The notes below the pieces were generated by a model. The model worked only from the letters and a program-made list of their open reading frames with translations. It had not been told where the DNA came from and made no database searches. Below, piece after piece: positions 10,378 to 55,015 of a stretch of 64,000 nt of DNA. The DNA is from Candidatus Hermodarchaeota archaeon (GTDB lineage Archaea; Asgardarchaeota; Lokiarchaeia; Sigyniarchaeales; SOKP01): positions 1 through 64,000 of the forward strand of contig JBHLLG010000003.1 of the NCBI GenBank assembly GCA_048885925.1, in the 5' to 3' direction. The position numbers were made by a program, and so were the translations under genes. Every line of letters starts with the position of its first letter. Positions within the stretch are counted from its first letter, which is position 1.

Positions 10378-11574
10378 ATGATTTGGGACCCATTAGAGAA
10401 GATGTTATTAGGGATTGCCATAGTACTCGCTTTTTTGTATATTTTATTATATTTGAACAAGGGAAGGCATAGAGATAATTCTAAGGAAAAGTTAATTTTT
10501 TATGGTTTCACCAGTCTAGGTGTAGGGTTAGCATCATCATTAATTATAGGATTTTACATCCATCTTCAATTGCCTGGACATTTTATTAATCTTACGTTTT
10601 ATGGAGATATGTATTACACAAATTGGGAACTAGAAATACTCAGGAGATTATGGCTAGTTTGTTATATGAGTGGATTTATTCCATTCTTTTATGCTTATGA
10701 GATAAATCAAAAGCGCACCAAGTTTTTACTTACGATAATTCAAGTGTCTTTAATTATTCTCATTTTTATTTCGCCCTATAATGTATTAGATCCTAGAGAT
10801 CCGGTTTCATTTCTTGCTTTTAATTATGCCTCCTTGTTATCATATATAATCTTACTTCAATATACAAAATGGGCTAGTAATGAGCATAAAATAATTGCTT
10901 TATTTATGTTTCTTTCATTTGTTTTAATTGGGAAAGGCATCTCATATTCTCTTCCAGAAATAAACTCTCTTAATGTAATACCTTTATTTATATCCCCCTT
11001 ATTTTTAATCCTTGGTTTCATAATGGGAATTATTCCCCTCTTATTTACTCCCTCTAATTATTCACATACTTATTTCTATTGGAGATTGTTTGTATATATT
11101 TATATTATTTTTGGATTAATTGAATTCGTTACTTTTTTGTTTATGGGAATTCCTGTAAACAGTGTAATAGCATTAGTTTTTAGTATTTTTATTTCTATAT
11201 ATATGCTTTTTTATACAAACAAAAAACTTAAACCTCAATTTTTAGGTAAAATCCCTTCAGTTGATGAAAAAGAAAGGCCAGATGTATTAAGTATACTTAC
11301 TAGACCCCAAAAAGTTACAGAAGAAGAAGTTACAATATCGAAAGAAAAAAAGATTTGTATCGTGTGTAAAGGTAAAGTAGGGAGAAAAAACATATATCTT
11401 TGTCCAGATTGTGATACTTTTTATTGTCTAAAATGTTCTAATACGCTAATTACTTTAGAAAATGCATGTTGGGTATGTAATACTCCAATAGATCCATTAA
11501 AACCTGTAAAATTGTATAAAAAAGAAGAAGATGATTTTATTAAAAATATATCCTTTGAGAAAAGTAAAGAATAG
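10378..11574 (+). CDS. Polytopic membrane protein with C-terminal C4C4 zinc finger
   Basis: ~9 hydrophobic segments followed by CIVC-CPDC-CLKC-CWVC. Confidence 0.75.
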   Translation: MIWDPLEKMLLGIAIVLAFLYILLYLNKGRHRDNSKEKLIFYGFTSLGVGLASSLIIGFYIHLQLPGHFINLTFYGDMYYTNWELEILRRLWLVCYMSGFIPFFYAYEINQKRTKFLLTIIQVSLIILIFISPYNVLDPRDPVSFLAFNYASLLSYIILLQYTKWASNEHKIIALFMFLSFVLIGKGISYSLPEINSLNVIPLFISPLFLILGFIMGIIPLLFTPSNYSHTYFYWRLFVYIYIIFGLIEFVTFLFMGIPVNSVIALVFSIFISIYMLFYTNKKLKPQFLGKIPSVDEKERPDVLSILTRPQKVTEEEVTISKEKKICIVCKGKVGRKNIYLCPDCDTFYCLKCSNTLITLENACWVCNTPIDPLKPVKLYKKEEDDFIKNISFEKSKE

Positions 11575-17296: not shown

Positions 17297-17977
17297 TTGA
17301 TGGAAGATATTGATCTTAATGAAGTTGAAGATAAAAAGCTTGCTAAATTAAGCATTGATGAATTAACACGTTTATTCTCGGAAAATATTAATGAACAGAC
17401 TTTAAGGTTAATTGAAGGAATTGAATTTCTTGTAGATGAGAATTTTGAAAAATTTATGGAAAATATGAAATACGTTATCAAAACCAATACAGAGGTTCAG
17501 GTAAAAAAAACATTTGAATCAAAGATTTTCAAGTCAAAATTAATGTTTTCTAAAGCAGATAGATTAAAATTATTTAATAAAATAAATGATATAAAAAATA
17601 TAGGGGAATTTTTAGCAAATAAAATGCTTCTTTACAGAGTAGTATTCCCCGATGATACATTTAAACTACAGGTATTAGATATCCTTAAATCTTTAAGAAT
17701 TATCTCTAATGAGATTTCTGAAGCAGTAAAATTAATTGGATCTGATCTAAGTAAAGCACATGATGTCTGTGAAAAAATAAAAGAAGAAAGAAGATCAATG
17801 AGAAAAAAAGAATGGAAACTAATAAATCGTTTATACAATTATGATATGGATTATTTGTCTAGAACTTTCTTATATCTTAAGGAATTAATTGAAACTATAA
17901 TGATGCTTGCGGATCACATTAAAAACTTCTCCGAATATATTCAATTTCTTGCTACAAAATATCTAATTTTTGATTAA
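17297..17977 (+). CDS. DUF47/PhoU-like phosphate transport regulator (divergent)
   Basis: Helical protein with ADRLKL and LADHIKN patterns; overlaps the start of the PiT ORF. Confidence 0.7.
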   Translation: MMEDIDLNEVEDKKLAKLSIDELTRLFSENINEQTLRLIEGIEFLVDENFEKFMENMKYVIKTNTEVQVKKTFESKIFKSKLMFSKADRLKLFNKINDIKNIGEFLANKMLLYRVVFPDDTFKLQVLDILKSLRIISNEISEAVKLIGSDLSKAHDVCEKIKEERRSMRKKEWKLINRLYNYDMDYLSRTFLYLKELIETIMMLADHIKNFSEYIQFLATKYLIFD

Positions 17978-19856: not shown

Positions 19857-20483
19857 TTAGATTCCTGTATTATCTCGATTCAGTTTTTGTTTTTTCGAAT
19901 TTTGTTTTATAAGAATAATCGATTCTTCTCTCGCTTTGAGGAGAGATCTTTCACTAATTCCGTCCATTTCTTTGGATGGAAGAACCTTTTCTTTTAATAT
20001 TCTTTTAAATAGCAAATACTCCTCTTTTCTACTAATGAATGGATTAACTTTTTCCTCATGGATAAATTCTTCGAGAGTGATATTTTTTCCATTACAATTA
20101 CCTTCTGTAAGATCAAAACGGAAATCTTTATACACCAAAAAACAATGAACCATTGGAACATAAGGAATATCATATTTTTTCAGGATTTCTTGTGCTCCAC
20201 TAGAAATTTCTTCTGTGAGTTTATAGACACCCACATGTTTATATAATGGTATATTCAATTCTTCTGCCAAGCCACTGATTACAGCATGTTTGGAAGTACA
20301 AGAACCTTTATTCTCTTTAAAAAAAATCATCTCGTCATCATAATCACTATTAAACCCATATTCAACATTATGAACGTAATCACAAGCCTCTCTGAATGAT
20401 GAAATTCCAAGTTCTAAAAATTTTTTTGATATTTTTCCTTTATCTTCAATTTCGGCGTTTGGTATTTTATTATAAGAATCCAT
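19857..20483 (-). CDS. Hypothetical protein, transglutaminase/papain-like fold candidate
   Basis: GSCTSKH...HCFL...DLT putative Cys-His-Asp triad. Confidence 0.55.
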   Translation of the reverse strand: MDSYNKIPNAEIEDKGKISKKFLELGISSFREACDYVHNVEYGFNSDYDDEMIFFKENKGSCTSKHAVISGLAEELNIPLYKHVGVYKLTEEISSGAQEILKKYDIPYVPMVHCFLVYKDFRFDLTEGNCNGKNITLEEFIHEEKVNPFISRKEEYLLFKRILKEKVLPSKEMDGISERSLLKAREESIILIKQNSKKQKLNRDNTGI

Positions 20484-29146: not shown

Positions 29147-29260
29147 GACTTTTACTAGTAATAGTTTGAATTAATCTTTAAATATTCTAACAAATTAGTA
29201 AATTTACCTCTGATAGATTTATAAACTTAAAATTACATTAAACTCACGATCCAATTAATT

Positions 29261-32200
29261 TTGCAATGGGCGATGAAAGCAGATAATAATAATTCGCAAG
29301 AAAAAATAAGAAAAGCCACTGAGTTGCTTCAAAAGTCCTGGTGGTTTTCATGGTTCTTAATAATTGCTCCTTTAACAACAGCGATAGTTGGCTTTTTTAT
29401 TTTTCGTCTTTTCCGAATAGAGTTTTATTTGGCACTTTCTTTCGCTGTTGTTGTTTTTATGTTTGCTTTACTACTTTTTTATAAAGCCTTCGATAAATAC
29501 AGAAATAATCCATTTTTTCTTGATAAAACTAACAATCTCAAAGCAAGAATTCATATTATATTTTTAATTTCTACTTTAGCATTTATTGCAACTCCCATTT
29601 TTATTCTTATATCGCCAGTAGGATACTCATTTATTACACTTCCATTAATCAGTTATGCTCTTCTCTATAATATTGTTTATTATTATTGTTATTTCCAACC
29701 ATTAGACTTTTATGATTTAAATAAAGGAGAATTCAAGCATGCTCAGGATTTTAAATTAATATTAAAACAACCATATAATTTCTTACTTTTCCTAAATTAT
29801 ATTATTCATATAATTTTTTTATCCATTACTGCTTCCACTAATTTCTCTTGGCTTTATTCTCTTATAACAAACCTATTCATATATTTCATTACTATAACAA
29901 GTACTAAGAAACAAATTAATGAAATAGATGTTCTAATATTAGAAAAGAAATCATTCTTGAAAGAATTAACGTTATATAAATTAAAATTAACGATTTCTTT
30001 GATTAACCTCATTTTTATTTTATTAATTCAACTACCCTTTATAGTATTAATAACTTCAATTCTTTCAGGTACCCATTATTCAAATATAGAGCTTGTAAAT
30101 AGCTTTTTTTTATCTCTAATATTTATCTTGTTTTATTTTAAATCTAGGTTTTATATTAGTTTTTACTATACTTCCAGGCTTACTGTCTACGAAGAAGCTG
30201 AAAAATTAAAAGACGTTCAAGAGAGACCACCATTTTTAAGTAATAAGTATCAAAAGTACAATTCTTATTTTTCTGGACTATTAATTCTTTTGATAATGCT
30301 TTTCTCATTTCTAATTAATATTCCAGTATTGATATTATTTATTCTTCCTTTTCTTTATATACTCTTTCATTATGAACAGAAGTCAGATCTTTGTTCTAAA
30401 AAATACAACAAATATATTATCCTACTAAACTCTTTTGTTATTTTAATTTCTATTTGTTTTGGGCTTTTACCACAAATTTCGGAAATATTTTACATAAATA
30501 TTCAATTTATTTCATTTTTATTTTTGTCATATTTTGCATTACAATTATTTGCGAAATTTGGGTATTTTAACAAAGATAATATTATTATTTATCAAAATAT
30601 AATTGGAGTTTCTTGTTTTTCTATAATATTATATTCTTTTTTTCCCATTGTTATTTTTGAATATATTTCATTTACATCTGATCCATTTATTATATTCATT
30701 TCAAATTTTTTAGTCCATTCAATATTAATTTTGATAATTTTATTAATTTCTTTTTATGTATTATATATTCGTTTCTTTTATGCCAAACGTCCAAAATTAT
30801 TTAAAGTCAGCGTAGTTGCTAATATTTTTGTAATTGAATTAATTCTATTTATTTTAATTAATCTGAGAATATTTTATTTAGTTGAACTTTTTACATTTTT
30901 CCAAATTTTAATTTTGTCAACTATTTTATTTCCTTTAATTTTTATAATCTTTGTATCAATAAACTATTTCATGGGTATCCTCCCCCTAAAAAACTTTCTG
31001 CTACTCACATATTATTCTTTTTGGATGTTAATTTTAACTGTTTTTCTATCAATCTCTTTAACTTTTTTTAACAATTATATTATAATAACTCTCGATCTTT
31101 TATTGTTATCTATTTTACTTCATTATAACATAAAATTTGGATTAAATTTGGATAAAATAACCGCTAAAACTTTTAAAAAATTTGTAAAAGTCAATTCCTA
31201 TTTATTAACTTTTGAGCTTTTCTTTTTATTTTACAATATTTTTTTCGTAGCTTTTCAGGCGTTATTATTATTTGATAACATAATATATTCAACTTATTTA
31301 TCCTTAGCGATAATTTGCACTTTAATTAATCTATTTTCTAAAAGGGAGATCTTTTCAGAAGCGCTTTATATAAAAATAAACGTCTTTATTTTACTATACA
31401 GCTCAATTATAACATTTTATTTTTTTTTATTGTTAACACTCAATACATTTTATGTCTTAATTATTCCTATTTTAACCTCAAGCATTGTTCTTTACATTCC
31501 AATTTTATATTTAAGAAAAAAGAAATTATGCTCAAATTTAACTCCCAAATTACTCACATTTAATAGTATTTTATTATCAATAACGTTAGCATTAATTCCC
31601 ACTATTATAGGCTTAGATTTATTCTATTTGGGCATATATTTTGACTTGACTTTTTTAATAATAACAATAATCAATTTTACATTGTATATTCTGTTCTTGA
31701 TTTTTGCGATAATCAACTATTTATCACGTAAAATTAAGATTAGAGAGGAAAGATTAAAATTTTTCTTGAAATTTCAATTGCTTACTGTATTCTGTACAAG
31801 TGCTACGACTATATTTTATTATCCCTATTTCTTATTAAGCGAGACTTTATATGCAATTGTCTTCCCTTTGATTTTTGTTTGCTGTTTCCTATATTTTCCT
31901 CTCTATTACTCTTATAAGAAATCGTTTTTCAATATAGAGGATGTTAAAAGAATAATAATTCTTAATACAATAATTTTATCTTGTTTATTAACAACAATAC
32001 CAACTCTAGTTGGCATAAATTTCATTTATCTTGGAGTTATTTTTGATTTCAATATGTTTTTGTTAAACATATTAAATTTTTCAATCTATATATTCTATTT
32101 ATTCCTTTTAATCATCAGCAGCTTATTAAAAAAATTCAAAATTAAAGAAAATTTCATCTTAATTGTTAATCAAGTACATATTATATTCTTATTTATAATA

Positions 32201-35200
32201 TCTATTACAACAGTTTTCTTTTATCCTTTTCTAGTGTTATTAGAATCTTATTATGGCATAATTTTGCCACTAATTGCATTACTTTTTTCATGGTTCTTCC
32301 TTTTTTATTATTCTTATAAAAAAGAGTACTTTAATTTAGAGAGGGTCAAGAAATTGACAATATATAATTTTATTATCTTTTCTTGTTTAATTATTTCTTT
32401 ACCTACAATTGTAAGTTTGGAATTTATTAGAATTGGATTAGAAGTAAATTTAATATTTATATTAACTAGCTCTCTATTCCTACTATTTGTTTTTCTAAAG
32501 ATTTCTGAGAGTTTAAGTGTAAAAATTAAATTAAAAGAGAAATTTATCAAAAATTTTAAGTTATTTGCATTTATTTCTTGGTTTTCGTTTACTTTACTAA
32601 TATCTTATTATATTGCATCGACATTTATAGCTGAAATAGAGTTAACTCCAATAACTTTATTAATATTGAGTTGTAGCTTTTTTACATTTTTTACATTAAG
32701 TATTTACAGTTTATTTCTATTTTCTAGCTATTCAGCGGGATTATCGTATTTAAAATATTTCCAGGATCTTATCATTTATGGGATTATAATTTCAATATCA
32801 TTTATATTCTTTTTTTTAATACTCTCAGTAGAGTTTTTCGTATTTCTTTTTATAGGTCCACTGCTATTTAATGTATCAATTTTAATTGGTTCTTTTTTTA
32901 CAATTTTTCTTTTAATTCTAATAATAATTGATAAAATAATAGAAATAAGATTATCTCAATTAAAAATTATAATTGAGCTAATATCATGGCTAATTATAAA
33001 GATATTAATATGTTTATCAACCTTTTCTCTATTTGATTTTTTTACATATCAGTTCTTTGCATATCAGTTCTTTATGATTAATAAGATACTTTTATTTTCA
33101 CTAATATTTTTGTTTCTTACTCCAATAAGTCTGTTTATTTTAAAGAGTTTAAAATATTTAACTACTGAAAATCAATTTTTAATAAAAAAGATCGCTGTTA
33201 TAATCTTTATCATTTCAATATTAAGTATTTATTCTGAAATTTTGTTTAATACTATGAATTTATTACCTATCTTTTATCAGAATTTCCTATTTCATATAAC
33301 AGTCTTTATGGTAAATTTAATTTTATTTGGTTATTATTTTATTTTGATTTTTAATATAACCGTTGAAGAACGTTCTGTTTTAAAATTATTTAGATTTTAC
33401 ATTTTATCATTTATATTATTTATAAGTCTTCTTTATTTTGGTACAATTTTATCAATTTTTCTTTTATTAATATCCTTTGTTATAATTCTCTCTCAGAGGA
33501 GTTCTATTCCAATTTTTCGATTTTTCTCATATTTCCTACTAAGTTTTTTTACCTTTATTGAAACTATTGTTATTCTAAATACTTATGCTATTATACCCGG
33601 ATTTGATATACTAATGATGAATATTTTTATTATTCTTTATCTATTATCCATCAGTGGAGTTTTAGTATTTTCTATTTTATTAAATATAAAAAGAAATAAT
33701 AATCTGGAGAAAATTTCACTATATTCTCTCATTTCACTATTATCTTTTGTCTATCTTAATTCATTTACTAAAATATTAATTCTTTACAACATAACAATTT
33801 CAGCTTTTATTTTATTGTTATTTATTGGAATTAACTTGTATCGCCAAAAAGATGAACGATATAAATGGTTTATTAACCCGTGTGTACTTTTATTTATTTT
33901 TGATTTTATTAGCTTTTTATCATATTCATGGTTCTTTAATAATCCAATTTTTAAATTGTATAATCCGATTTTAACTTTTACATTAACTTTAAGTATGACT
34001 GGATTTGGATTTATCCTTTTGTATAATAAAGCGCCAGCTAGATTTAGGAAGAAGTCTTTTCTTTATGTAATTCTTCCATCAATAGTTTTTTCTTTTCCAA
34101 CCTTTTTATATTTTCTTATCATCGCTGCTTTATCTATGCCATTATGGTCTGTAGTCCCTTTTATCGTCGCAATTAATTTTGGAGTTTTTCTTTTTTATTT
34201 TTCAATTGGAATTTATCAATGGAGGATCTCATGGACAATTTGGAAATCTGGGTGGTATGCTTGGAATATTCTACCTTTTGTTAATTTCTATATAATTTAT
34301 CAAAATTTTACAGGAATAGATGTATTAACCAATTCATTACAATTTGGAATGTTTTCCGTTGAAGGATCATTAATTATATCGATAATAATTTGTTCTTTAT
34401 TTTTTTTACCAGTTGTATACTCTAAAATTAAGAAATACTTTTCTCAAATTTTTTTTATTATTTGGGGTGAAAGTCTATTTTTACTCTATTGGATTAGTCA
34501 AAATTTGTTTGTTGATGATATATTACTGAGAAATTTATCTTTCGTTTTATTCTCTGCGATTTTATTGATGCCTATTTTAGTAGGTTTAAAATTTTGGAAA
34601 ATTTTGTCAATACTTTGGGTATTTCCTCTAACATTTATTAACATATGGTTTATATCATCTTATTTGATATCTATAGGAATATCTTTTGAACTTGCATTTT
34701 CAATTGATGTTTTGGTTATAGGGTTGTTATTAATAGTATATTCATTTTTTCCAAATATTAGATCAGTAGTTGTTGTTTTAATAACTGCGTATTTCATAAC
34801 TTTATTAGGTATTTTCTTAACAATTTATTTTGTTCTATATTCTCTAATATTGAACCCATATTTTGCTATAAATATGAGTTTTATTACGGTTGGTTTTAGT
34901 CTTTTTTCCTCAAAATATGTAAAGTTATCCAAAAGAATTATTGATATATGTCTTTCTTGGATTCTAATAATAAATTTTGCATGGTTAACTTTTAATACAT
35001 TAAGTTTAATTCCAGGCTTAATAATGGTTGCTTTTTCATTAGCATTAACTGTTTTAGGTTTTTCCTTCTTCATATTTAATCGTTATAAAATGAAAATTCC
35101 TATCAATAAAGCGATTCCATATTTAATTTTGACAATTGGAGCGTCATTATCAGCCTCATCTTTAATTTCTATTATCTTTAAAGCATCTCCAGGTATTCTG

Positions 35201-38200
35201 ATTTCTGTCTCTTTTTCAGTATTCATTCTATTTTTATATTTTTTAATTACGGAATATAGGTTCATTATTTGGCTTCTTATTCCAATTCCTATAACTTCAC
35301 CAATACTTGAGCAAATAATGAGAATAAATTTTATTAAACCATTTTGGCTTTTAACGTGGTCGATGTTATATCTTATATCTTTTCAGGTATTGATAAATTT
35401 ATTTAAAAATTTGGTAACGGAAGAAAAACCGGAAATAAAAAATAGTATTTTAAAAATTTTCACGGATAAAAATCAAGTGAAACAGCTTAACTTTACCTGT
35501 TTTCTATTAAACTCAATAAGTATATCTCTATTTATCGCAATTTTTTTACCAAATTTATTGAAACAAATCATATTTACTGAATTACTATTAATTTACCAGA
35601 TTTGCGATTTTCTAATAATTTGGTCGTTCTCATTTTTAATTTGTATGAAATATGTTGAAAAATCAGAATTGAATATAAGAATAAAAAATCTAATGCATTA
35701 TTTCGCAAAAATTAGTTTCATTTTATATCTTTTAATACCCTTTGCACTAGGAATTAATCTTTATTTATATCTGGTATTTATGAAAGCAGAATTTTTGATA
35801 TCTCTTTATCTAGTTTTATTATTATTCAGTGCAGTAATGTTTATAGAAAATTTCTTCTTAGATAAAAATTATTTTTATCTTCTTTTCAATTCAACAAGAA
35901 ATCAATTTACTTTAGGTTCATGGCTAATTTTTAGTAATATTTTGGCTCTATTCTTATATTTATTTCATTTAAACGTTTTTCTTTTAATTTTAACTATTTC
36001 ACTATTGAATATCGTATCTATTTACTTTTTATCTCATTTAGATATTTCAAAAACCAAAATTTCTACTTCTTATTTAATTCTTATTTATAATTCATTTATT
36101 TGGAGTTCTTTTTATATTGCATCGTTAATTTCTGATGGGTTGGTTTTTATATTTGAAGAATTAAGGGGTTTTACTTATTACTCATTATTATTTCAAAATG
36201 CATTTTTACTATTATTCGTTTTTAGTTATTTTTTCATTAAATTTGAAAAGAATTTAAAAAATTGGATTGAATTCATTTTTTTCATCATATTTCAAGGATT
36301 ATTAGTAGTAAATTTGATTTTAATACTTGTGATTTATAATTATTTAAATGTACTTACAATTAACATAATTATTTTGATTGAGACTTGTTTGTCATTTAAA
36401 CCAATTAATAGTGTTAATATTATATTACCTGAACAAAAATATCCAAACTTCTTAACAAAAATCTCTTCAATTTTAGTATTGTTATTATATATTGAAGTAA
36501 GTATGACGATTTATGGATTATTAATTGGATTCATAGGAATGCTTGAGAGTATTCTAATTTCTCTATCATTATTATTCTTCCTAACTTTTGCAGATATTTA
36601 TTCTATCAAAAAAGTAAGAAAAAGTTATGCTTCACTTGTTCATAGTGTTAGTTTCTTTACGATTTCATTTATGTTGTTTTTAATTATAAATCGGTTGGTA
36701 TCTCAATATCCACTCTTACTTAGTGTAGAAATTTTTATCTTTTTAATAATGCAATTTTACACTAATTATTCTTTATTTGCCTCTTTAAAGAATTTTAGTC
36801 CAAATAAAAAAGAGGATCTTAAAAAAGTTCAATTATATATTCAACATCTTCTAGGTATAGGTTTCTATCTCACTCTATGTAGTTTTATATTACAGTCTTT
36901 AATCTTACAAAGGTTTGAATTGCAATTAATTCTTTTAATCCTAAGCGTTGTAGTCCATGCTTTAATGATTATAGACAATTTTCTTTTGAAATTTATAGGC
37001 AAAACGTCTAATTACATTAAAGTCATTTCCTGGATATTTATTATGACGTTTACGGCTACATACTTAATCTGGCTTTATAGTACTTATTTTATTACCTCCT
37101 TTTTTACTGTTATACCAATTATTATAATTATTCTTATCCTCGAAGTAGCTTATCTCTTCAGATTATTGATTTTTTGGCCAATAATTATTTCGAAAAAAGA
37201 AAAAATTCGTTTTTTTCTAATTAATTTAACCTATCTTAATTTTATTACATGGCCTTTGTATTTTGCGAGATTAAATGCTTTTCTTATGCTAAATTTAATA
37301 CTATTTTCCTTTCTAATTACTGTTATAATTACTTATATTGATGAAACTATAGGAGTTTTAAGAGAAAAAACAAGAAAATCCTTGAAGTCTTATTCATTCT
37401 TGATTTTTGGTAGCTTATTAACTATTGACGTTTTCATTCTCTTAGGATTTATTCCCCATTTCGATATTCTATTAAATGTTAGTATTTCTTCTTTATTATT
37501 TATTACATTTATTGTAATCAAAGTGAAGCCATTTAAAGAACATTCATTTATAGCTTTCGGTTTTTGGATGGCCATTTTTTTATTATTAAGCTTATTTATA
37601 TATCGGATTTCATTATCTTGGATTTTTGGAGTAGTAGTTTTGGGTTTAACTATTTTAATTTATCCATTCGTATTCCTTTTAGAAGAATTAAGAGAATTAT
37701 TTAACAGATTTATTGATAATTTAATAAATTTATTTAGAATGATAAAAACTATTGTTAGGAATTTAGTTATTAATATCGTCAATTTCATAAAGCTATATTT
37801 CAAATCAATTTTGATTATTGTTAATATGTTTCTTTCAATATTTCTTGGTATTCTTCTATCACCCGCAATATTGAATATATTAAATTGGATTCATTCAATA
37901 CTCCTAATATTTCCATTTTTTGGATTACTCTATTCATTCATCCCCACTAAAAAATCAAAAGATGTGGATATAACTTTTAAACGTCATATGTATCGTCTAA
38001 TTATCAGTTGGGGTAGTATTATTGTGGTTTTGTTTGCGTTTATAACACCTATTTGGTATATATTCACTATTTGGATATCAATTTGGATTGTTGGAGCAAT
38101 TTTATTACCTTATATAAGTTTTAAAGAAAAAAGTGAGAATATATCAATTAAGTGGAGATTTTATACACTAATACTTTTAATAATTTTGCTTATTTTATTT

Positions 38201-38248
38201 GGAATATTATTTGGTACTCAGATTTATATGAATTTTTTTCTAAATTAA
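29261..38248 (+). CDS. Giant (~2990 aa) polytopic membrane protein of unknown function (start likely ATG 29273)
   Basis: 9-kb uninterrupted ORF of alternating hydrophobic stretches and short Lys-rich loops; internal 134-aa repeats. Confidence 0.85.
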   Translation: MQWAMKADNNNSQEKIRKATELLQKSWWFSWFLIIAPLTTAIVGFFIFRLFRIEFYLALSFAVVVFMFALLLFYKAFDKYRNNPFFLDKTNNLKARIHIIFLISTLAFIATPIFILISPVGYSFITLPLISYALLYNIVYYYCYFQPLDFYDLNKGEFKHAQDFKLILKQPYNFLLFLNYIIHIIFLSITASTNFSWLYSLITNLFIYFITITSTKKQINEIDVLILEKKSFLKELTLYKLKLTISLINLIFILLIQLPFIVLITSILSGTHYSNIELVNSFFLSLIFILFYFKSRFYISFYYTSRLTVYEEAEKLKDVQERPPFLSNKYQKYNSYFSGLLILLIMLFSFLINIPVLILFILPFLYILFHYEQKSDLCSKKYNKYIILLNSFVILISICFGLLPQISEIFYINIQFISFLFLSYFALQLFAKFGYFNKDNIIIYQNIIGVSCFSIILYSFFPIVIFEYISFTSDPFIIFISNFLVHSILILIILLISFYVLYIRFFYAKRPKLFKVSVVANIFVIELILFILINLRIFYLVELFTFFQILILSTILFPLIFIIFVSINYFMGILPLKNFLLLTYYSFWMLILTVFLSISLTFFNNYIIITLDLLLLSILLHYNIKFGLNLDKITAKTFKKFVKVNSYLLTFELFFLFYNIFFVAFQALLLFDNIIYSTYLSLAIICTLINLFSKREIFSEALYIKINVFILLYSSIITFYFFLLLTLNTFYVLIIPILTSSIVLYIPILYLRKKKLCSNLTPKLLTFNSILLSITLALIPTIIGLDLFYLGIYFDLTFLIITIINFTLYILFLIFAIINYLSRKIKIREERLKFFLKFQLLTVFCTSATTIFYYPYFLLSETLYAIVFPLIFVCCFLYFPLYYSYKKSFFNIEDVKRIIILNTIILSCLLTTIPTLVGINFIYLGVIFDFNMFLLNILNFSIYIFYLFLLIISSLLKKFKIKENFILIVNQVHIIFLFIISITTVFFYPFLVLLESYYGIILPLIALLFSWFFLFYYSYKKEYFNLERVKKLTIYNFIIFSCLIISLPTIVSLEFIRIGLEVNLIFILTSSLFLLFVFLKISESLSVKIKLKEKFIKNFKLFAFISWFSFTLLISYYIASTFIAEIELTPITLLILSCSFFTFFTLSIYSLFLFSSYSAGLSYLKYFQDLIIYGIIISISFIFFFLILSVEFFVFLFIGPLLFNVSILIGSFFTIFLLILIIIDKIIEIRLSQLKIIIELISWLIIKILICLSTFSLFDFFTYQFFAYQFFMINKILLFSLIFLFLTPISLFILKSLKYLTTENQFLIKKIAVIIFIISILSIYSEILFNTMNLLPIFYQNFLFHITVFMVNLILFGYYFILIFNITVEERSVLKLFRFYILSFILFISLLYFGTILSIFLLLISFVIILSQRSSIPIFRFFSYFLLSFFTFIETIVILNTYAIIPGFDILMMNIFIILYLLSISGVLVFSILLNIKRNNNLEKISLYSLISLLSFVYLNSFTKILILYNITISAFILLLFIGINLYRQKDERYKWFINPCVLLFIFDFISFLSYSWFFNNPIFKLYNPILTFTLTLSMTGFGFILLYNKAPARFRKKSFLYVILPSIVFSFPTFLYFLIIAALSMPLWSVVPFIVAINFGVFLFYFSIGIYQWRISWTIWKSGWYAWNILPFVNFYIIYQNFTGIDVLTNSLQFGMFSVEGSLIISIIICSLFFLPVVYSKIKKYFSQIFFIIWGESLFLLYWISQNLFVDDILLRNLSFVLFSAILLMPILVGLKFWKILSILWVFPLTFINIWFISSYLISIGISFELAFSIDVLVIGLLLIVYSFFPNIRSVVVVLITAYFITLLGIFLTIYFVLYSLILNPYFAINMSFITVGFSLFSSKYVKLSKRIIDICLSWILIINFAWLTFNTLSLIPGLIMVAFSLALTVLGFSFFIFNRYKMKIPINKAIPYLILTIGASLSASSLISIIFKASPGILISVSFSVFILFLYFLITEYRFIIWLLIPIPITSPILEQIMRINFIKPFWLLTWSMLYLISFQVLINLFKNLVTEEKPEIKNSILKIFTDKNQVKQLNFTCFLLNSISISLFIAIFLPNLLKQIIFTELLLIYQICDFLIIWSFSFLICMKYVEKSELNIRIKNLMHYFAKISFILYLLIPFALGINLYLYLVFMKAEFLISLYLVLLLFSAVMFIENFFLDKNYFYLLFNSTRNQFTLGSWLIFSNILALFLYLFHLNVFLLILTISLLNIVSIYFLSHLDISKTKISTSYLILIYNSFIWSSFYIASLISDGLVFIFEELRGFTYYSLLFQNAFLLLFVFSYFFIKFEKNLKNWIEFIFFIIFQGLLVVNLILILVIYNYLNVLTINIIILIETCLSFKPINSVNIILPEQKYPNFLTKISSILVLLLYIEVSMTIYGLLIGFIGMLESILISLSLLFFLTFADIYSIKKVRKSYASLVHSVSFFTISFMLFLIINRLVSQYPLLLSVEIFIFLIMQFYTNYSLFASLKNFSPNKKEDLKKVQLYIQHLLGIGFYLTLCSFILQSLILQRFELQLILLILSVVVHALMIIDNFLLKFIGKTSNYIKVISWIFIMTFTATYLIWLYSTYFITSFFTVIPIIIIILILEVAYLFRLLIFWPIIISKKEKIRFFLINLTYLNFITWPLYFARLNAFLMLNLILFSFLITVIITYIDETIGVLREKTRKSLKSYSFLIFGSLLTIDVFILLGFIPHFDILLNVSISSLLFITFIVIKVKPFKEHSFIAFGFWMAIFLLLSLFIYRISLSWIFGVVVLGLTILIYPFVFLLEELRELFNRFIDNLINLFRMIKTIVRNLVINIVNFIKLYFKSILIIVNMFLSIFLGILLSPAILNILNWIHSILLIFPFFGLLYSFIPTKKSKDVDITFKRHMYRLIISWGSIIVVLFAFITPIWYIFTIWISIWIVGAILLPYISFKEKSENISIKWRFYTLILLIILLILFGILFGTQIYMNFFLN

Positions 38249-43607: not shown

Positions 43608-45068
43608 ATGTCAGCTCCTTTAGAAATATTATTGAGAGATGCTCGAATTGATCTCGTTTTAGCTCGAATCGAGAAAGATGAATCTATTATAAATGAGATA
43701 ATAAACCATATAGATAACAATATTAGATCGATTAAATTCAATGCGATTCATGTATTAGGAGAATTAGGCCAAAAATCTAAAAACAGTATCTCAAAATTGA
43801 GGAAATGTTTAGAAGATGATGATTGGAGTATTAGACGTGAAGCTGTTAGATCCTTAGGAAAGATTGGAGAAATTGCTAAAGATACAATTCCACAGGTATC
43901 GATAATGCTAAAAGATAAAGAAGAATCTATTAGAAGTGAAGCAGCAATTTCACTTGGTAAGATTAAGAATCCGACTAATGAAGCAATTTCAAGTTTAATT
44001 GAAGTATTAAATGATAATTCTGAAATTGTCCGAACTGAAGTTGCTAAAGCTCTCGGTGAAATAGGGGCAGATGCATATGAAGCAATTCCATTTCTTATGA
44101 AAAGCCTTAAAGATGTAAGTTGGACTGTTAGAACTTCCTCAGCTCAATCAATTAGTCAGATTGGGAAAGGATCTACCAAAGCCATACCAAGTTTAATAAA
44201 AGCACTTGAAGATAAAGATTGGAGAGTAAGATTCAGAGTCTCGAATACTTTAGCAGAATTAGGAAAGGAAGTAATTCCAAATCTTGTATCTATATTACAC
44301 CATAAAGATAAATTTGTAAGAAAGTGCGTAGTAGATATATTGGGAGAAATGAAACTAACAGATCAAAATATAATGGACAATATCTCAAAACTATTACATG
44401 ATAAAGCCGAAATCGTTAGAGGGAAAGCTGCTGATGCTCTTAGGAGTATTGGCAAAGACGCTGTTCCCATTTTAAATAGAGAAATTGAATCAGCATCTTT
44501 AAAAATGAAAAAAATCATAATTTCTGCACTTGGAGGTATTGGTACAGACGCTAAAGAAGCGATTCCAACTCTTATCAGTTTATTAAAAGTGCCTGAACAA
44601 TTATATATTGAACATATGCTTGGAATGGGTTTATGGAAGGTTATTTCTTATAAGTCTAAACATTCAATTTTAACTTTTATAAACGATCCCTTTAGAAGAA
44701 ATGTATCAGTTAGAGTAGAAGTAGCAAGAGCATTAGGAAAAATTGGAGTAGATTCAGAAGATGCTATCCGTGCTCTTGAATTTGCTTTGTATGATCCCAG
44801 AAGTATTGTACGACGTGAAGCTGCACTTTCTTTAGGAAAATTAGGATTATTAGCAAAAAATGCAGTTCCCAGTTTAATTAAAAGTTTACAAGATAAAAAT
44901 CCAGATGTAAGATGGAGATCATCTGAAGCATTGGGAGTATTAGGCGTTAATACCGAAGAAGTTATATCAAGTTTGAATGAATTAATCCATGATGAATGTG
45001 ATTTCGTATGTGAATCTGCTATTAATGCATTAGATGCATTAACCGAAGAAGAACAAAAATATTATTAG
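43608..45068 (+). CDS. HEAT (PBS lyase-type) repeat protein
   Basis: Recurring LxDxxxxVRxxAAxALGxI repeats; GGTGA SD right after the livF stop. Confidence 0.9.
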   Translation: MSAPLEILLRDARIDLVLARIEKDESIINEIINHIDNNIRSIKFNAIHVLGELGQKSKNSISKLRKCLEDDDWSIRREAVRSLGKIGEIAKDTIPQVSIMLKDKEESIRSEAAISLGKIKNPTNEAISSLIEVLNDNSEIVRTEVAKALGEIGADAYEAIPFLMKSLKDVSWTVRTSSAQSISQIGKGSTKAIPSLIKALEDKDWRVRFRVSNTLAELGKEVIPNLVSILHHKDKFVRKCVVDILGEMKLTDQNIMDNISKLLHDKAEIVRGKAADALRSIGKDAVPILNREIESASLKMKKIIISALGGIGTDAKEAIPTLISLLKVPEQLYIEHMLGMGLWKVISYKSKHSILTFINDPFRRNVSVRVEVARALGKIGVDSEDAIRALEFALYDPRSIVRREAALSLGKLGLLAKNAVPSLIKSLQDKNPDVRWRSSEALGVLGVNTEEVISSLNELIHDECDFVCESAINALDALTEEEQKYY

Positions 45069-52042: not shown

Positions 52043-52594
52043 ATGAGTAATGAAGAACTTAATCAAACTAAAAAAATAAACGTAAGAGATTGGATCGTAC
52101 TTAGTACGGTTATGATTGGTGCGGTTCTCACGATCCTTGCTCTAATTTGGCAGGTTCCACCTCCTAATGGGATAGTTACCGCAACATTTTCACTAATGAT
52201 ATCTTTTATTTTTTTTGTTAATTCTGTCTCTGCTAATTCTAAAGCTCAATTCGAAGCTAATCTAGGGAAAGTATCTGAAGAAAGAATTAACCGATTTGTA
52301 ACTTTTGCAGAATATTCATTTGGATTTGGATTTACATTAGTCATCACTGGATTTACAATACTAGGTTATGAATATTTATTAGGTTATGTTGGTCGGGAAT
52401 TAATTAGTCTATTGCTCCCAATTACTTTTTTATTTACTGCGTGGGTAATTATCTTCATATATAATATAATAAACTATTTTGGGAAACCTCTAGGAGCCTT
52501 AAGAAACTTAAAACGTAACCTCTGGATATTTTTAGAACTAATCTGCCTGGTAATAATCATATTCGATTTTTTCGAGATATTATCTATTCCCTAA
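52043..52594 (+). CDS. Hypothetical membrane protein
   Basis: ~5 hydrophobic segments, no recognised motif. Confidence 0.65.
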   Translation: MSNEELNQTKKINVRDWIVLSTVMIGAVLTILALIWQVPPPNGIVTATFSLMISFIFFVNSVSANSKAQFEANLGKVSEERINRFVTFAEYSFGFGFTLVITGFTILGYEYLLGYVGRELISLLLPITFLFTAWVIIFIYNIINYFGKPLGALRNLKRNLWIFLELICLVIIIFDFFEILSIP

Positions 52595-52606: not shown

Positions 52607-55015
52607 TTAAATGAAGCATGATAAATCTGTTTGAAGCGATTTCTTATTATAATCTAAAGTTAATAATTCTTCAAGCTCAGGGAACTTAAAAGGAAAGATG
52701 TTTTCAAAAGCTCTTTTTAGAAGTTCAATGTACTTTCTTTTATCATACTGGTGCTTTTTTGGATTATACAAATCTGAAAGGATAACTTTCTTTTCAGGAA
52801 AATTCGGATCCGCATCAGCGTTAAGAATAATATATCTCACATTCTTTCCAGCAGACGCTACAATACCTGAGCGTTCTAACTGTCTTGCGGCTACAGCTTG
52901 ATAAGAATTTACTTTGTATGCTGATGGCTTTCGGGATATTTTTTGACGGATAGAAAGTTCATCTCTGGATACTTTCCCCGAACAAATTCGTTCTACATAT
53001 TCATAGAGCTTTTCCATTGCTTGTGGAATTCTTTCTATAAATTCATTGACGGTTTTTGCACCTTGAAAGACATCAATAAAGGCATATTGAGCATCTTTTA
53101 CAATTTTGGGTATATCTCTGCGTCTCACTTCAATACCTCTCACCTTGACCTCGCCATTGCTTTTTATCCCCCAGTAATGACTAAGGGCTGGTACCTCTGG
53201 TTCTGCTCGAGAAGGCAAGAAAACGATAACATTGAATCTTCCCTCCCAACTCATAGGAATACTTGTGCTTTTAGATATTTCTTCAGCAATTTTTCTTGTT
53301 AATTTCTCAAATTCTTCTGGATTTCTTCCTTTTTTGTCTTGGATCCACATGGAATCAACAATTCCATGGACAATTTTACAATCATAATTTTTAGCAATCT
53401 CGACGGATCTCAATAAAAATTCACGAGCGAAGGCACAAACTGTTTGATGAGCCTCAATTTTTCCAAAACGGGCGTTTTTAAATCCTAAATATCCAAAACT
53501 TACAACAAGTACCCATTTTAATGCAATATCGGTAAATTTGTATCGAAGATCGTCATGAGTCTTATTATATGCTTTACACTCTAAACGCTTTCTTAATGGT
53601 AAACTAATTGATTTCGAAATAATCCCCTCTCTTTTCGAACAAATATGAAAATCTAGACCAGGTACTTTAATCCCTGTACCATCATCTTTACAGCATTTGC
53701 AATTAATCGTTTCTGAAGAAATATTAAAGTTAGCCATTAGGGAGGGATACATTGAGGAAAAGTCTAACTCTATCACTTGATCAAAAACACCTATTAATGG
53801 TTCAAATATATGCCCACCTCGGTCATTTTTGATCAAATCCATTCCACTTCGAAAACCTTCTGGGCTCTTCTTGAAAGGTGGGATAAGGTGATTTAGTTTA
53901 TAGGCATTATAGTATTGTATCGATTGAAGAGCGCCCCCGATTGTTACTCTACATAATCTTTGCAATGGAACTCGAGATACTCTTGCAACCTCAATAACAC
54001 CTGGTATATTTCCCTCGCTAAAGTGTAAGCTACCGTAAGTTGTTGTGTCTAAATGAAAGCGTCCTGTAAAATAAACTTGTGTTTTGGAACGTCGCATTAT
54101 TATTCCGTAAGACATATAATGATCAGAGTTTCCTGAAAGATTGAAGATACACTTTCCGAGTGGCGTTTTTGTGCGAGAAAAATAGAGATCGCTTGATACA
54201 CGATTCACTGATGCTCGAGCTGCCAAGTAAGGAAACACAAATTCATCTCCTCCATGTGTTAAAATAATGTCTGGATCTAAACGCTCAATCACTTTACTAA
54301 TTGATTTGATGGTTTCTGCTTCATCAGCTTTGTCAATTAGAACTTTTCTTTTTCTCTGTCCATCAGCTCTCGGTATGTTGGCTTTTTCGTCTTTTTCAAC
54401 AATACTAACTTCCGCACATATCAGCGGGTCGTTGAAATATGATCTCATTCCATGTTGCTGTATTTTAATATCCAGCCACACAGCTTTTAAAGGTGGTAAC
54501 TCGTAAAACAATTCTTCGTTGTTGTCTTTTAGCTCTAATGAAATTAAACGCATTAATTGCCCGTCACCCTTTTTATTCTTTTCAGAATTAACCTTGAAAC
54601 AACATAAAGACATTGGAAATAAATCATTTACATAGAAATACATTTGCGAGATTGGAAGATCCGTATTATATAGAGTAAAAAGACCGATTTCATCTATTTC
54701 CTTAATTGTTTTCTTAAATACAGAAGGTTTTACTACAGAAACTCCTAATATTTTTACTTTTTCATGATCCTCTAACTTCACATATTTTTCACAGATTCGG
54801 ACATCCTTTACATTGGGGTGTGATTTGAGAATTTGTCTTAATCTCTTGAAATCGTTACCCGTATGTCTTTTTGGTACTGCAAAAAATTCTGGACAGAATT
54901 CATGAAAGATTTTTAAAACCTTTTGTTCCTTTAAAGTTTTTACCCAAAGGATAACTCCCTTATGATAAGTTGAAACATCTAAAAGCCAGCCATCAAATTG
55001 ATCTTGATAATCCAA
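52607..55015 (-). CDS. polB2: Archaeal PolB2-type DNA polymerase (exonuclease-degenerate)
   Basis: DFSSMYPS, KWVLVVSFGYLG, HGIVDS in place of YGDTDS, no ExoI DxE; C-terminal QTDLSCF. Confidence 0.88.
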   Translation of the reverse strand: MDYQDQFDGWLLDVSTYHKGVILWVKTLKEQKVLKIFHEFCPEFFAVPKRHTGNDFKRLRQILKSHPNVKDVRICEKYVKLEDHEKVKILGVSVVKPSVFKKTIKEIDEIGLFTLYNTDLPISQMYFYVNDLFPMSLCCFKVNSEKNKKGDGQLMRLISLELKDNNEELFYELPPLKAVWLDIKIQQHGMRSYFNDPLICAEVSIVEKDEKANIPRADGQRKRKVLIDKADEAETIKSISKVIERLDPDIILTHGGDEFVFPYLAARASVNRVSSDLYFSRTKTPLGKCIFNLSGNSDHYMSYGIIMRRSKTQVYFTGRFHLDTTTYGSLHFSEGNIPGVIEVARVSRVPLQRLCRVTIGGALQSIQYYNAYKLNHLIPPFKKSPEGFRSGMDLIKNDRGGHIFEPLIGVFDQVIELDFSSMYPSLMANFNISSETINCKCCKDDGTGIKVPGLDFHICSKREGIISKSISLPLRKRLECKAYNKTHDDLRYKFTDIALKWVLVVSFGYLGFKNARFGKIEAHQTVCAFAREFLLRSVEIAKNYDCKIVHGIVDSMWIQDKKGRNPEEFEKLTRKIAEEISKSTSIPMSWEGRFNVIVFLPSRAEPEVPALSHYWGIKSNGEVKVRGIEVRRRDIPKIVKDAQYAFIDVFQGAKTVNEFIERIPQAMEKLYEYVERICSGKVSRDELSIRQKISRKPSAYKVNSYQAVAARQLERSGIVASAGKNVRYIILNADADPNFPEKKVILSDLYNPKKHQYDKRKYIELLKRAFENIFPFKFPELEELLTLDYNKKSLQTDLSCFI

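Follow-up and report, generated by a model that had tools for sequence, protein, structure and literature searches.

A giant membrane protein of Asgard archaea with roughly 90 helices and a conserved core between arms of variable length

Introduction

The window analyzed here, a 64,000-nt stretch of DNA, contains a 9-kb reading frame whose product consists almost entirely of hydrophobic helices, which raises the question of what kind of protein it is and what it may do in the membrane. To our knowledge, the largest helix count in one characterized polypeptide is that of Piezo, with 38. The preliminary description of this locus proposed a scaffold, a mechanosensor or a giant channel. Here we report the properties of the gene, its family and its predicted structure, and compare these possibilities.

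Results

The giant-protein ORF is a single open frame of 2995 codons that begins with TTG and ends with the stop codon at 38246–38248 (Table 1). Because M5 is nearly invariant in the 38-sequence family alignment, translation more likely begins at the ATG at 29273, and the protein probably has 2991 aa; the length of about 2990 aa given previously was correct. The frame is far beyond chance: with 0.074 stops per codon expected from the regional base composition, the log10 P of 2995 stop-free codons was -100, the longest open run in 200 shuffles averaged 91 codons and never exceeded 162, and the remaining five frames over the gene were open for 99 codons or fewer. The gene is the longest ORF of its own genome, and its product has 84 predicted helices versus 19 in the next protein. 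Its GC3 (0.192) equals the genome mean (0.194), indicating that the low G+C of the gene comes from its amino-acid content. The intergenic gaps of 177 nt upstream and 198 nt downstream make a monocistronic gene plausible. The TTTATAAA motif noted earlier at about position 29218 was present, and TTACTA/TAGTAA-like words occur upstream of the gene. A sigma-70 promoter scan, which is not applicable to an archaeal gene, gave 73 sites compared with 81.8 ± 10.4 in shuffles, that is, no excess. No clue to function comes from the neighboring genes, which differ among the taxonomic families of the order, an observation that counts against the mechanism proposed in the Discussion.

Table 1. Features of the giant-protein locus (window coordinates).
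Feature	Position	Strand	Basis
Giant polytopic membrane protein gene	29261..38248	+	ORF list, translation, family alignment, chance test
Candidate archaeal TATA box TTTATAAA	29218..29225	+	Read directly; ~48 nt upstream of ATG 29273; putative function
N-terminal module, residues 5-330, 8 predicted helices	29273..30250	+	Stand-alone gene in certain lineages
Conserved 10-helix module, residues 331-639	30251..31177	+	Conservation 0.50-0.56
Repeat array A, four tandem ~134-aa units, 4 helices each	31178..32755	+	hhalign probability 97-100%
Less conserved 9-helix stretch, residues 1166-1449	32756..33607	+	Conservation, family hydropathy
Conserved core, residues 1450-2050, about 21 helices	33608..35410	+	Conservation, constant length, dN/dS
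Inner-side Trp-rich segment and, after it, a helix whose P1672 and invariant N1675 lie deep in the membrane, residues 1648-1683	34202..34309	+	
Repeat array B, two ~250-aa units, 8 helices each	35642..37150	+	hhalign 92-96% at ~250 offset
C-terminal 11-helix part, residues 2631-2995	37151..38245	+	Conserved D2694, E2808, E2956, K2964, R2966

A first homology search returned 88 homologs, which either had no name or were called "hypothetical" and of which none carried a Pfam domain; the closest was 68% identical to the window protein. A profile search of 1.84 billion proteins gave 66 matches, 64 of them at E ≤ 1e-10, and nothing outside the family. The names of the homologs, Lokiarchaeia or Promethearchaeota (one from Ca. 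Lokiarchaeum ossiferum), bore out the Asgard origin that had been supposed. The family was present in 116 of the 152 genomes of one Asgard order (genome G000 left out), and the other genomes of the phylum (about 246) yielded one marginal match. Judged by sequence, the giant proteins form a closed family confined to this order. Several genomes of the window's taxonomic family that are nearly complete yielded no copy of the gene (for example, G168, 99%; G174, 98%; G166, 97%; G162 and G163, 96%), indicating that it is dispensable in some lineages, which also counts against the mechanism favored below. The window protein is typical of the family in having the conserved core residues, more than 70 helices and no soluble domain.

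Pfam and NCBIfam searches with the window protein gave 0 families at E ≤ 1; with Pfam, 10 full-length relatives likewise matched no family at E ≤ 0.01, and 32 family cores gave only weak matches, with no Piezo model among them. PADLOC, PHROGs and PDB sequences gave no match to the giant protein, which resembles no known family. Whole-gene dN/dS was 0.19–0.30 in nine pairs, with each region at 0.10–0.44 and the stretch 1270–2110 at 0.13–0.33 in the 15 lowest-dS pairs, and conserved columns were distributed along the entire length of the protein. The gene, present as a single copy in its genome, is native and under purifying selection. The preliminary description had held that a match to a known family or a lack of purifying selection would speak against it; the former was looked for and not found, and these ratios contradict the latter.

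The protein is rich in Leu (17.7%), Ile (16.9%) and Phe (13.2%), with 5.1% Lys. Kyte-Doolittle hydropathy of the single sequence gave 84 membrane helices and family-averaged hydropathy gave 93, so the earlier estimate by eye of about 80 was right or slightly low. The helix count ranged from 58 to 96 across 32 parameter settings; the count of 93, obtained in two of the 32, was picked post hoc as the sole parity-consistent outcome. In the 93-helix model, K+R content alternated without exception over all 94 loops (1.5–8.3 versus 0–1.1), with a lag-1 autocorrelation of -0.73 that was reached in 0 of 2000 shuffles. The Lys-rich loops described previously proved to lie on the inner side, with 14.6% K in the 47 inner loops versus 1.3% in the 47 outer loops. 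Because the loops are short (outer, median 8 and maximum 20 aa; inner, median 20 and maximum 44 aa, the longest loop of the protein), a soluble domain is lacking, and none was found by Pfam or NCBIfam, in agreement with what had been seen by eye. Together these results point to roughly 90 transmembrane helices (best-fitting count 93), an inner N-terminus and an outer C-terminus, with almost no mass outside the bilayer. Its relatives carry 73–122 predicted helices. Few conserved polar residues lie deep in the helices according to family-averaged hydropathy and conservation (N1675, E2412, K1247, H2566 and D2723).

The layout is arm-core-arm: about 600 aa of core lie between arms of tandem helix-hairpin modules, and the 8-helix N-module can be separate. 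The N-module was a separate upstream ORF of 312–314 aa in 3 of 20 loci, and stand-alone N-module proteins formed 14 clusters of 310–320 aa (for example, P0186 adjoins P0067 by locus tag). The units of array A comprise residues 640–762, 763–896, 897–1030 and 1031–1165, the second and third being 39–40% identical; there were 1–5 copies in relatives from the same taxonomic family and 0–5 detected across 41 genes. The units of array B comprise residues of about 2128–2380 and 2381–2630. In close relatives the C-terminal arm was 880, 1057 or 1139 aa long, and across the family genes the N-arm measured 999–1896 aa and the C-arm 809–2326 aa; the number of arm modules differed even among species of one genus. 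The C-terminal part has short outer loops but also the second-longest inner loop of the protein (residues 2808–2849; window 37682–37807), which is likely helical.

The length of the core was 595–614 aa in 34 of 35 genes of the window's taxonomic family (one outlier, 511) and 597–813 aa in the other two taxonomic families, and its dN/dS was the lowest in the gene (0.12–0.29). The (near-)invariant residues of the core are W1661, G1664, W1668, P1672, N1675, P1717, W1735, N1748, P1771, W1779, W1786, G1821, S1828, P1831, Y1844 and G1850; W1661, P1672, N1675, P1717, W1735, P1771, W1779, W1786 and P1831 were used to define the family. D1687, at the outer end of a core helix, is nearly invariant. The strict mid-helix Pro and Asn residues and the many Trp residues resemble a specific transport, gating or binding site more than a passive scaffold.

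Two AlphaFold (AF2) models, which span 841 and 940 residues of the chain before residue 2631, were all-helical, with pLDDT of 80.9 and 84.8 and pTM of 0.47–0.52. Of the 57 helices called within them, 56 fell on separate model helices and had a helical content of 13/17 or more; residues 1659–1668 and 1670–1682 were modeled as helix and 1654–1658 as coil. Among the best 50 matches of each of five Foldseek or VIA-align searches, no solved fold rose above helical-protein noise: the best VIA-align Z values were 10.3 and 9.9, compared with a noise level of about 13 for this tool. Nearly all of the best 50 Foldseek matches for both models were soluble alpha-solenoids aligned over 530–1170 columns, including Ski3, Ctr9, separase, Naa15 and designed repeat proteins, with TM-scores of 0.07–0.18, rmsd of 20–60 Å and E-values of 1.8e-3 or worse; the best matches had E = 1.8e-3 with a probability of 0.96 for one model and E = 0.099 for the other. 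The dominance of alpha-solenoids in these lists is in line with a serial hairpin geometry. Soluble alpha-solenoids (TPR/HEAT) likewise consist of serial antiparallel helix hairpins in an evolutionarily variable number of repeats; however, they are water-soluble, whereas the helices of the giant protein are hydrophobic and obey the positive-inside rule, and only the local hairpin pattern is shared.

The best, though weak, structural neighbor of residues 330–636 was EccD, the membrane scaffold subunit of the ESX (type VII) secretion systems of mycobacteria (7np7_D4, 7b9f_X and 6umm_B), whose multi-helix domain has a structural role. Comparison with the 11-helix EccD fold gave Z of 9.2–9.9 over 207–254 aa with rmsd of 4.8–6.9 Å, below the noise level of about 13 (individual alignments: Z 9.9, rmsd 6.9 Å, 254 aa; Z 9.8, rmsd 5.0 Å, 208 aa). 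The identity was 8% with no Pfam match, the giant protein does not have the ubiquitin-like N-domain of EccD, and there was no ESX component among the Pfam names of the 42 scanned ORFs of the window.

Discussion

We infer that the modules are stacked in series as an open-ended in-plane ribbon, a transmembrane solenoid, and not as a closed bundle, because modules can be gained, lost or split off without loss of the gene. The pTM of only 0.47–0.52 and the TM-scores of 0.07–0.18 for the solenoid matches weigh against this shape. The reading that we favor, tentatively and with a probability of about 0.35, is that the protein is a large in-plane scaffold or mechanical element that organizes, stiffens or senses membrane shape or tension on the Piezo principle, reached independently. 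Helix-bundle arms would be attached to a conserved module, an arrangement at which the two proteins would have arrived separately; the inner loops, with their many lysines, would rest against the inner leaflet, and the Trp/Pro/Asn-rich core would act as a functional hub. Because few conserved polar residues lie deep in the helices, there is no sign of an enzyme.

Piezo has 38 helices; its pore module is C-terminal and is surrounded by arms built from nine 4-helix units. Both proteins are very large, all-helical and polytopic, with tandem 4-helix units in series and long arms joined to one strongly conserved module. However, the giant protein has about 90 helices and a number of arm units that varies among species, its conserved module is central rather than C-terminal with two arms per chain, it has no outer cap domain (no outer loop exceeds 20 aa), and Pfam revealed no Piezo domain in it or in 10 relatives. 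There was no Piezo chain in the best 50 matches of the five fold searches, which used the 841- and 940-residue models. By sequence, the giant protein is not a Piezo homolog. Of the functions proposed initially, the scaffold and the mechanosensor fit the repeats and the core between variable arms, but the sequence and fold searches gave no link to Piezo or to any channel, and there is no outer cap.

A giant channel, transporter or lipid scramblase is a serious alternative, although we consider it unlikely. The core, alone or in an oligomer, would then form a conduction or lipid path, with the arms anchoring or regulating it, possibly with Piezo-like mechanosensitive gating. Gating hinges and broken helices typically show such mid-helix Pro and Asn residues, and the invariant mid-membrane N1675 beside P1672, together with the conserved mid-helix P1717, P1771 and P1831 in successive helices, agrees with such a path, as do the constant length and lowest dN/dS of the core and the conservation of E2412, H2566 and D2723 within C-arm helices. 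Against this, the sequence searches matched no family of transporters or channels, the best structural matches (Z 10.3 and 9.9) stayed within helical noise, and the conserved charged membrane residues are very few for about 90 helices.

It is improbable that the protein is a membrane enzyme or assembly platform for lipids or polyprenyl-linked glycans (e.g., in envelope or lipid biosynthesis) that differs greatly from the polytopic transferases known. Sequence searches detect many such transferases poorly, and in the window's taxonomic family a glycoside hydrolase family 4 gene lay upstream in 5 of 20 loci and an aminotransferase gene in 8 of 20; the nearly invariant D1687 would also suit an enzyme. 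However, this synteny is lost in the other taxonomic families of the order, and, the weak core matches mentioned above aside, 0 Pfam/NCBIfam matches were obtained for the protein, 10 full-length relatives and 32 cores. Enzymes of the GT-C type need substantial outer loops or domains; the giant protein, in contrast to GT-C glycosyltransferases and polymerases, has outer loops of at most 20 aa (median 8) and no Pfam/NCBIfam match. The prenyl synthase matches to the core model were 4-helix fragments with Z of 9–10, below the noise level.

It is still less probable that known transporters or respiratory antiporter-like subunits were joined in tandem and have diverged too far to be recognized. In the membrane arm of complex I/Mrp, too, helix-bundle modules are lined up within the membrane, complex I ND6/NuoJ chains made up 10 of the 50 best VIA-align matches for the core model (residues 1726–1866, Z 7.5–9.1), and the internal duplication and split forms show growth by module joining. 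These alignments, however, had rmsd of 6–7 Å over about 108 residues and Z below helical noise, there was no Proton_antipo or other Pfam match at E ≤ 1, the search of 1.84e9 proteins gave family members only, and the giant protein has neither partner subunits nor a conserved membrane Lys-Glu chain, with only K1247 and E2412 deep in helices.

A non-functional or artefactual frame (T-rich low complexity or an assembly artefact), suggested by the extreme composition and by the fact that no RNA data set was listed as containing the gene, is refuted by the log10 P of -100, the dN/dS of 0.19–0.30 and conserved columns over the whole length, as well as by a frame intact without internal stops in the listed matches from more than 100 genomes in separate assemblies and by the same DNA in sequencing runs of 7 studies.

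The in-plane scaffold or mechanical element can be given a more specific form, which we regard as doubtful: a two-armed in-plane ribbon around a conserved hub, invented by archaea independently of Piezo, that shapes, stiffens or senses the S-layer-free membrane of Lokiarchaeia and contributes to protrusions. A glycoproteome study of Promethearchaeum syntrophicum detected no S-layer protein (PMC11284389). The giant gene is testable now, because the family member NEF87_003094, of 4905 aa, is encoded by a strain in culture whose reported proteome comprises 3061 proteins (bioRxiv 10.1101/2025.11.30.690169).

If the topology is right, a chain of about 90 helices can be inserted and folded by a cell, and the family has more than twice the largest number of helices known to us in any one characterized polypeptide. 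If the ribbon reading is true, the family would hold the record for helix number per chain (over 120 in relatives) and introduce a new type of membrane architecture, namely a transmembrane solenoid of evolvable length. Its arms of variable repeat number are a natural experiment on the growth of membrane proteins through module addition. The family is a nearly universal marker of an Asgard order that includes cultured, protrusion-forming Lokiarchaeia, whose membrane biology is of direct relevance to models of how eukaryotes arose.

Open frame and native origin

The giant gene was read as one uninterrupted frame. At a stop rate of 0.074 per codon, taken from the base composition of the region (A 0.31, T 0.46), the chance of 2995 stop-free codons was log10 P = -100. 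The longest open run in 200 shuffles was 162 codons, and the remaining five frames of the same DNA were open for at most 99 codons. An artefactual frame is excluded. The gene was single-copy in its own 3.9-Mb genome, where its frame was the longest (3005 codons from stop to stop versus 2141 for the runner-up) and its product carried 84 predicted helices versus 19 for the next protein under an identical hydropathy count. The fall of G+C to 0.21-0.25 within the gene, with an excess of T, arose because codon positions 1 and 2 encode a protein rich in Leu, Ile and Phe. GC3 was 0.192 versus a genome mean of 0.194, indicating a native gene.

The earliest in-frame start codon is TTG at 29261, from which residues are numbered here. 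Since M5, encoded by ATG at 29273, was nearly invariant across the family, this ATG is the likelier start. The three residues preceding M5 were likewise conserved among close relatives, which could mean that translation begins further upstream at a codon other than ATG, or that a 5' leader is conserved. The gene is set off by intergenic gaps of 177 nt upstream and 198 nt downstream. A scan with a bacterial sigma-70 promoter model performed no better on this DNA than on shuffles (73 sites versus 81.8 ± 10.4), Rfam gave only one snoRNA-like match below threshold (E 0.45), and Tandem Repeats Finder detected no DNA-level repeat corresponding to the repeats of the protein. The sequencing runs listed as containing this DNA included no RNA run. 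Three metatranscriptome runs and one DNA run, searched at 85% likeness, yielded only two partial matches of 34-36 nt, both in one RNA run, too little to speak for or against expression. The residues 'CWA' or 'KLCWA' before the conserved Met were kept in frame at 29261-29272 of the window and in loci L052-L056 and L071, and Leu replaces this Met in L052.

Membrane topology

The protein consists largely of L (17.7%), I (16.9%), F (13.2%), S (8.6%) and K (5.1%). Helices were counted from Kyte-Doolittle windows, a simple hydropathy method, combined with charge alternation. The preliminary description had estimated several dozen transmembrane helices, perhaps ~80, and this estimate was close: the single sequence gave 84 (window 19, threshold 1.5), and hydropathy averaged over 78 aligned homologues gave 93 (window 17, threshold 1.2-1.4). 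The count spanned 58-96 over 32 parameter settings, and zero positive-inside violations occurred only in the two settings yielding 93 helices, a number that was chosen after the fact. In the 93-helix model, the Lys+Arg content of the 94 loops alternated between 1.5-8.3 and 0-1.1 with no exception (lag-1 autocorrelation of loop charge -0.73; 0 of 2000 shuffles equally low), from which an N-in, C-out orientation follows. The Lys-rich loops described earlier were also borne out, with 14.6% Lys in the 47 inner loops (median 20 aa, maximum 44). The 47 outer loops were shorter (median 8 aa, longest 20). With loops this short and 53% of residues in TM cores, hardly any of the protein's mass lies outside the membrane, least of all on the outer side.

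In two AlphaFold2 models comprising 1781 residues, 56 of the 57 called helices were helical at 13 or more of 17 positions, each on a distinct helix; the models thus lend the helix calls independent support. Helical periodicity of conservation was significant in only 14 of the 93 helices, with the mean spectrum peaking at 90-100 degrees, and therefore cannot separate a ribbon from a bundle.

Family and distribution

The initial search returned 88 homologues (1662-3754 aa, 31-68% identity), all of them unnamed, 'hypothetical' or 'membrane protein of unknown function', and none with a Pfam domain; those named derive from Asgard MAGs. Alignment A1, 32 sequences covering residues 1270-2110, where conservation is highest, supplied a profile for comparison with 1.84 billion representative proteins. 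There were only 66 matches, 64 of them at E<=1e-10, and all were giant proteins of up to 4905 aa or short pieces of them. The matches did not trail off into a twilight zone and included no longer, fused protein. The family includes 'hypothetical protein NEF87_003094' of Ca. Lokiarchaeum ossiferum (4905 aa). Relatives had 73-122 helices by the single-sequence count and no long non-membrane stretch, the largest such gap being 159 aa in one member of taxonomic family f3.

The same profile was run over 399 genomes of the phylum. Leaving out genome G000, the gene was found in 116 of 152 genomes of the order, distributed over its four taxonomic families as 101/133 (f1), 1/1 (f2), 12/14 (f3) and 2/4 (f4). 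Among about 246 genomes outside the order there was one marginal match (G115, E 9e-4, 80 positions). A genome search with the single protein agreed with this distribution. The genomes of the order without a match included near-complete ones (G168, 99%; G174, 98%; G166, 97%; and G151, G162 and G163, each 96%), in which the gene was either lost or missed. Genera g4, g7 and g10 and most of g11 lacked it in spite of genome completeness of 96-99%. In G169, otherwise without the gene, a weak profile match at C2:37235-37525 (E 1.5e-4, ~100 positions) contained 2 TAG and 5 TAA codons and may be a decayed remnant or a chance match. G138, from a different taxonomic family of the order, was the only genome in which two copies were noted. 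These paralogues (L047 and L048; C1:3672121-3674631 and 3431154-3433643; open frames of 4920 and 3151 aa) were not sisters in a quick tree.

A published description of the family was not found in the full-text literature, of which the searched part was incomplete. The word 'giant' does not occur in a 2021 survey of Asgard transporters (PMC7997004), and 12 of its 23 matching passages contain no mention of the family.

Arm-core-arm architecture

Conservation along the chain and profile self-comparison defined seven parts (Table), in which tandem arrays A and B flank a central core. Units 2 and 3 of array A shared 39-40% identity. From one to five array A copies were detected in 33 of 41 full-length genes, and the HMM detected none in the 8 most divergent. 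The core kept to 595-614 aa in all but one of 35 genes from the window's taxonomic family (the exception, 511 aa) and measured 597-813 aa in the remaining two families. In the 41 genes the N-terminal arm ahead of the core was 999-1896 aa long and the C-terminal arm 809-2326 aa; among close relatives the C-terminal arms fell into discrete lengths (880, 1057 and 1139 aa).

Table. Coordinates of the features described (nucleotide positions in the window unless a locus is named; residues of the giant protein)
Feature	Position	Strand	Details
Giant membrane-protein gene	29261-38248	+	single open frame, 2995 codons
TTTATAAA, candidate archaeal TATA box	29218-29225		upstream of giant gene; read from sequence
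N-module	residues 5-330		8 helices
Conserved module	residues 331-639		10 helices
Array A	residues 640-1165		four tandem ~134-aa units, 4 helices each; hhalign probability 97-100%
Less conserved stretch	residues 1166-1449		9 helices
Core	residues 1450-2050		~21 helices
Array B	residues ~2128-2630		two ~250-aa units, 8 helices each; hhalign probability 92-96%
C-terminal part	residues 2631-2995		11 helices
Invariant or near-invariant core residues	F1615, W1661, G1664, W1668, P1672, N1675, P1717, W1735, N1748, P1771, W1779, W1786, P1831, Y2037
Split N-module gene	L033:11224-12159	-	~20-nt overlap with large-gene start
Split N-module gene	L035:3576-4511	+	~20-nt overlap with large-gene start
Split N-module gene	L037:3554-4495	+	~20-nt overlap with large-gene start
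HEAT-repeat protein	43608-45068	+	486 aa, almost wholly HEAT repeats; directly after ABC importer genes
Small Ras-family GTPase	63189-63668	+	Pfam Ras, E 3e-39
Pfam-less ORFs	9057-10142, 10378-11574, 17297-17977, 19857-20483, 52043-52594, 56470-57207, 57300-57713

In 3 of 20 loci the N-module had an ORF to itself (312-314 aa), located upstream and overlapping the large gene slightly. Complete proteins of 310-320 aa in fourteen clusters matched this module; one of these, HWN80_01535, adjoins the 2712-aa HWN80_01540 by locus tag. The split genes indicate that the giant chain is a fusion of modules that are also able to serve as separate subunits.

Window-wise hhalign found no internal repeats beyond arrays A and B; comparison of an array A unit with residues 1596-1733 reached a probability of just 21%. 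Weak self-matches in an all-against-all BLAST were discarded as composition effects, none being left with composition correction. A stand-alone ancestor of the four-helix unit was sought with the four-unit profile among proteins of 67-237 aa (8000 candidates scored), and the one match was a fragment on a 1052-nt contig. A pseudo-tetrameric channel made of the four array A units was rejected, as relatives have anywhere from 1 to 5 such units.

Selection and descent

Whether the gene is under purifying selection had been left as a point to check, and selection was evident from dN/dS values (Nei-Gojobori) of 0.19-0.30 for the whole gene over nine pairs, with pairs containing the window near saturation at dS of at least 1. 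Values for all seven regions lay within 0.10-0.44. The core was the lowest region (0.12-0.29), and the stretch 1270-2110 gave 0.13-0.33 in the 15 pairs of lowest dS. Among the matches listed no internal stop was found, save in the doubtful 100-position match of G169. In a quick tree of 32 cores, genera clustered together and f3 was set apart; this grouping of sequences fits a mainly vertical descent. Between L063 and L065, loci from two genomes of the window's genus, dS was 0.10-0.20 over residues 5-2050 and 0.78-0.86 over residues 2051-2995, a mosaic that suggests recombination within the gene.

Genomic neighbourhood

The neighbouring genes are of common types. Those upstream encode an MFS transporter, a class I/II aminotransferase and a family 4 glycosidase. 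Those downstream encode a branched-chain-type ABC importer, the HEAT-repeat protein listed in the Table and an acyl-CoA-type ligase; the window's remaining genes have housekeeping functions. The aminotransferase recurred upstream in 8 and the glycosidase in 5 of 20 loci, all from the window's taxonomic family, and loci of f3 and f4 had other neighbours. No partner gene emerged from these loci.

The position of the HEAT-repeat protein behind the importer genes is unusual. The window also contains two family B DNA polymerase genes on the minus strand (11657-14569 and 52607-55015; 970 and 802 aa), and several related loci likewise have one downstream of their giant gene. The small Ras-family GTPase belongs to the eukaryote-like signature proteins that characterise Asgard archaea. 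No Pfam family was assigned at E<=1e-5 to seven ORFs (137-398 aa).

Core residues and comparison with known families

The invariant and near-invariant residues of the core were mostly Trp, Pro, Gly, Asn and Phe. N1675 is buried about 8 residues deep in a helix, beside P1672, and P1717, P1771 and P1831 occupy successive helices. A Trp-rich segment on the inner side (1654-1668) precedes the core prolines; in the AlphaFold2 model, 1654-1658 was coil and 1659-1668 formed a short helix, one face of which carries W1661, W1665 and W1668. The conserved prolines and asparagine in mid-helix favour the strongest rival to a structural role, namely that the core is a putative channel, transporter or scramblase, which we consider possible but somewhat unlikely. 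Across the protein, the only conserved polar residues deep in helices were N1675, E2412, K1247, H2566, D2723, Q2345 and Q445. They formed no catalytic-looking cluster, and a putative divergent membrane enzyme is an improbable reading.

The preliminary description had recognised no soluble domain or catalytic motif, and database comparison agreed. Pfam and NCBIfam gave no family at E<=1 for the giant protein, PADLOC and PHROGs gave no matches, and Pfam found none in 10 full-length relatives, including members of 3100-4920 aa, and only scattered single matches (E>0.06) in 32 cores. Against PDB chain sequences the core profile had no match and the full-length profile two chance matches (E 0.87 and 7.1). 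A fusion of known transporters is very improbable.

Structure models covered residues 330-2110. AlphaFold2 gave pLDDT 80.9, pTM 0.52 and 35 helical elements for 1270-2110, and pLDDT 84.8, pTM 0.47 and 33 helical elements for 330-1269. Foldseek found no match in the PDB at E<=0.001 for either model (best E 0.099 and 1.8e-3; TM-scores 0.07-0.18). In both lists nearly all of the best 50 rows were soluble alpha-solenoids (Ski3, Ctr9, separase, IFT-A, Naa15 and designed repeats), and only three in the list of the core model were membrane proteins. For these predicted structures, the lists speak only of a local pattern in which antiparallel helix hairpins follow one another in a long series. In a VIA-align comparison with 48,161 representative chains, the core reached a best Z of 10.3, with a 121-aa four-helix piece of a prenyl synthase. 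Ten rows placed complex I ND6/NuoJ on core residues 1726-1866 (Z 7.5-9.1, rmsd 6-7 Å). The EccD membrane domain of ESX secretion was best for the N-side model, on residues 330-636 (Z 9.8-9.9, 208-254 aa aligned, rmsd 5.0-6.9 Å). Z values below ~13 are common for helical proteins, and therefore no fold was assigned. Among the rows listed there was no Piezo chain, and no transporter or channel stood out; for models of this length, each spanning several modules, such an absence carries no weight. The giant protein resembles Piezo in design principle, but no test of membership supported a place in that family, and some failed.

Proposed organisation and role

The giant protein is native, selected, specific to one order and all-membrane, with ~90 helices in an arm-core-arm arrangement whose modules can be gained, lost or split off. 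Because gain and loss of units are tolerated and the models consist of serial hairpins, we infer that the modules would stack serially in the plane of the membrane and not form one closed bundle. The protein would then form a ribbon in which a constant hub is flanked by two arms whose length can evolve. Such a ribbon may serve within the bilayer as a putative scaffold or mechanical element, acting on membrane shape by organising, stiffening or sensing it. This is the likeliest of the roles considered, although a tentative one to which we give a probability of roughly one in three.
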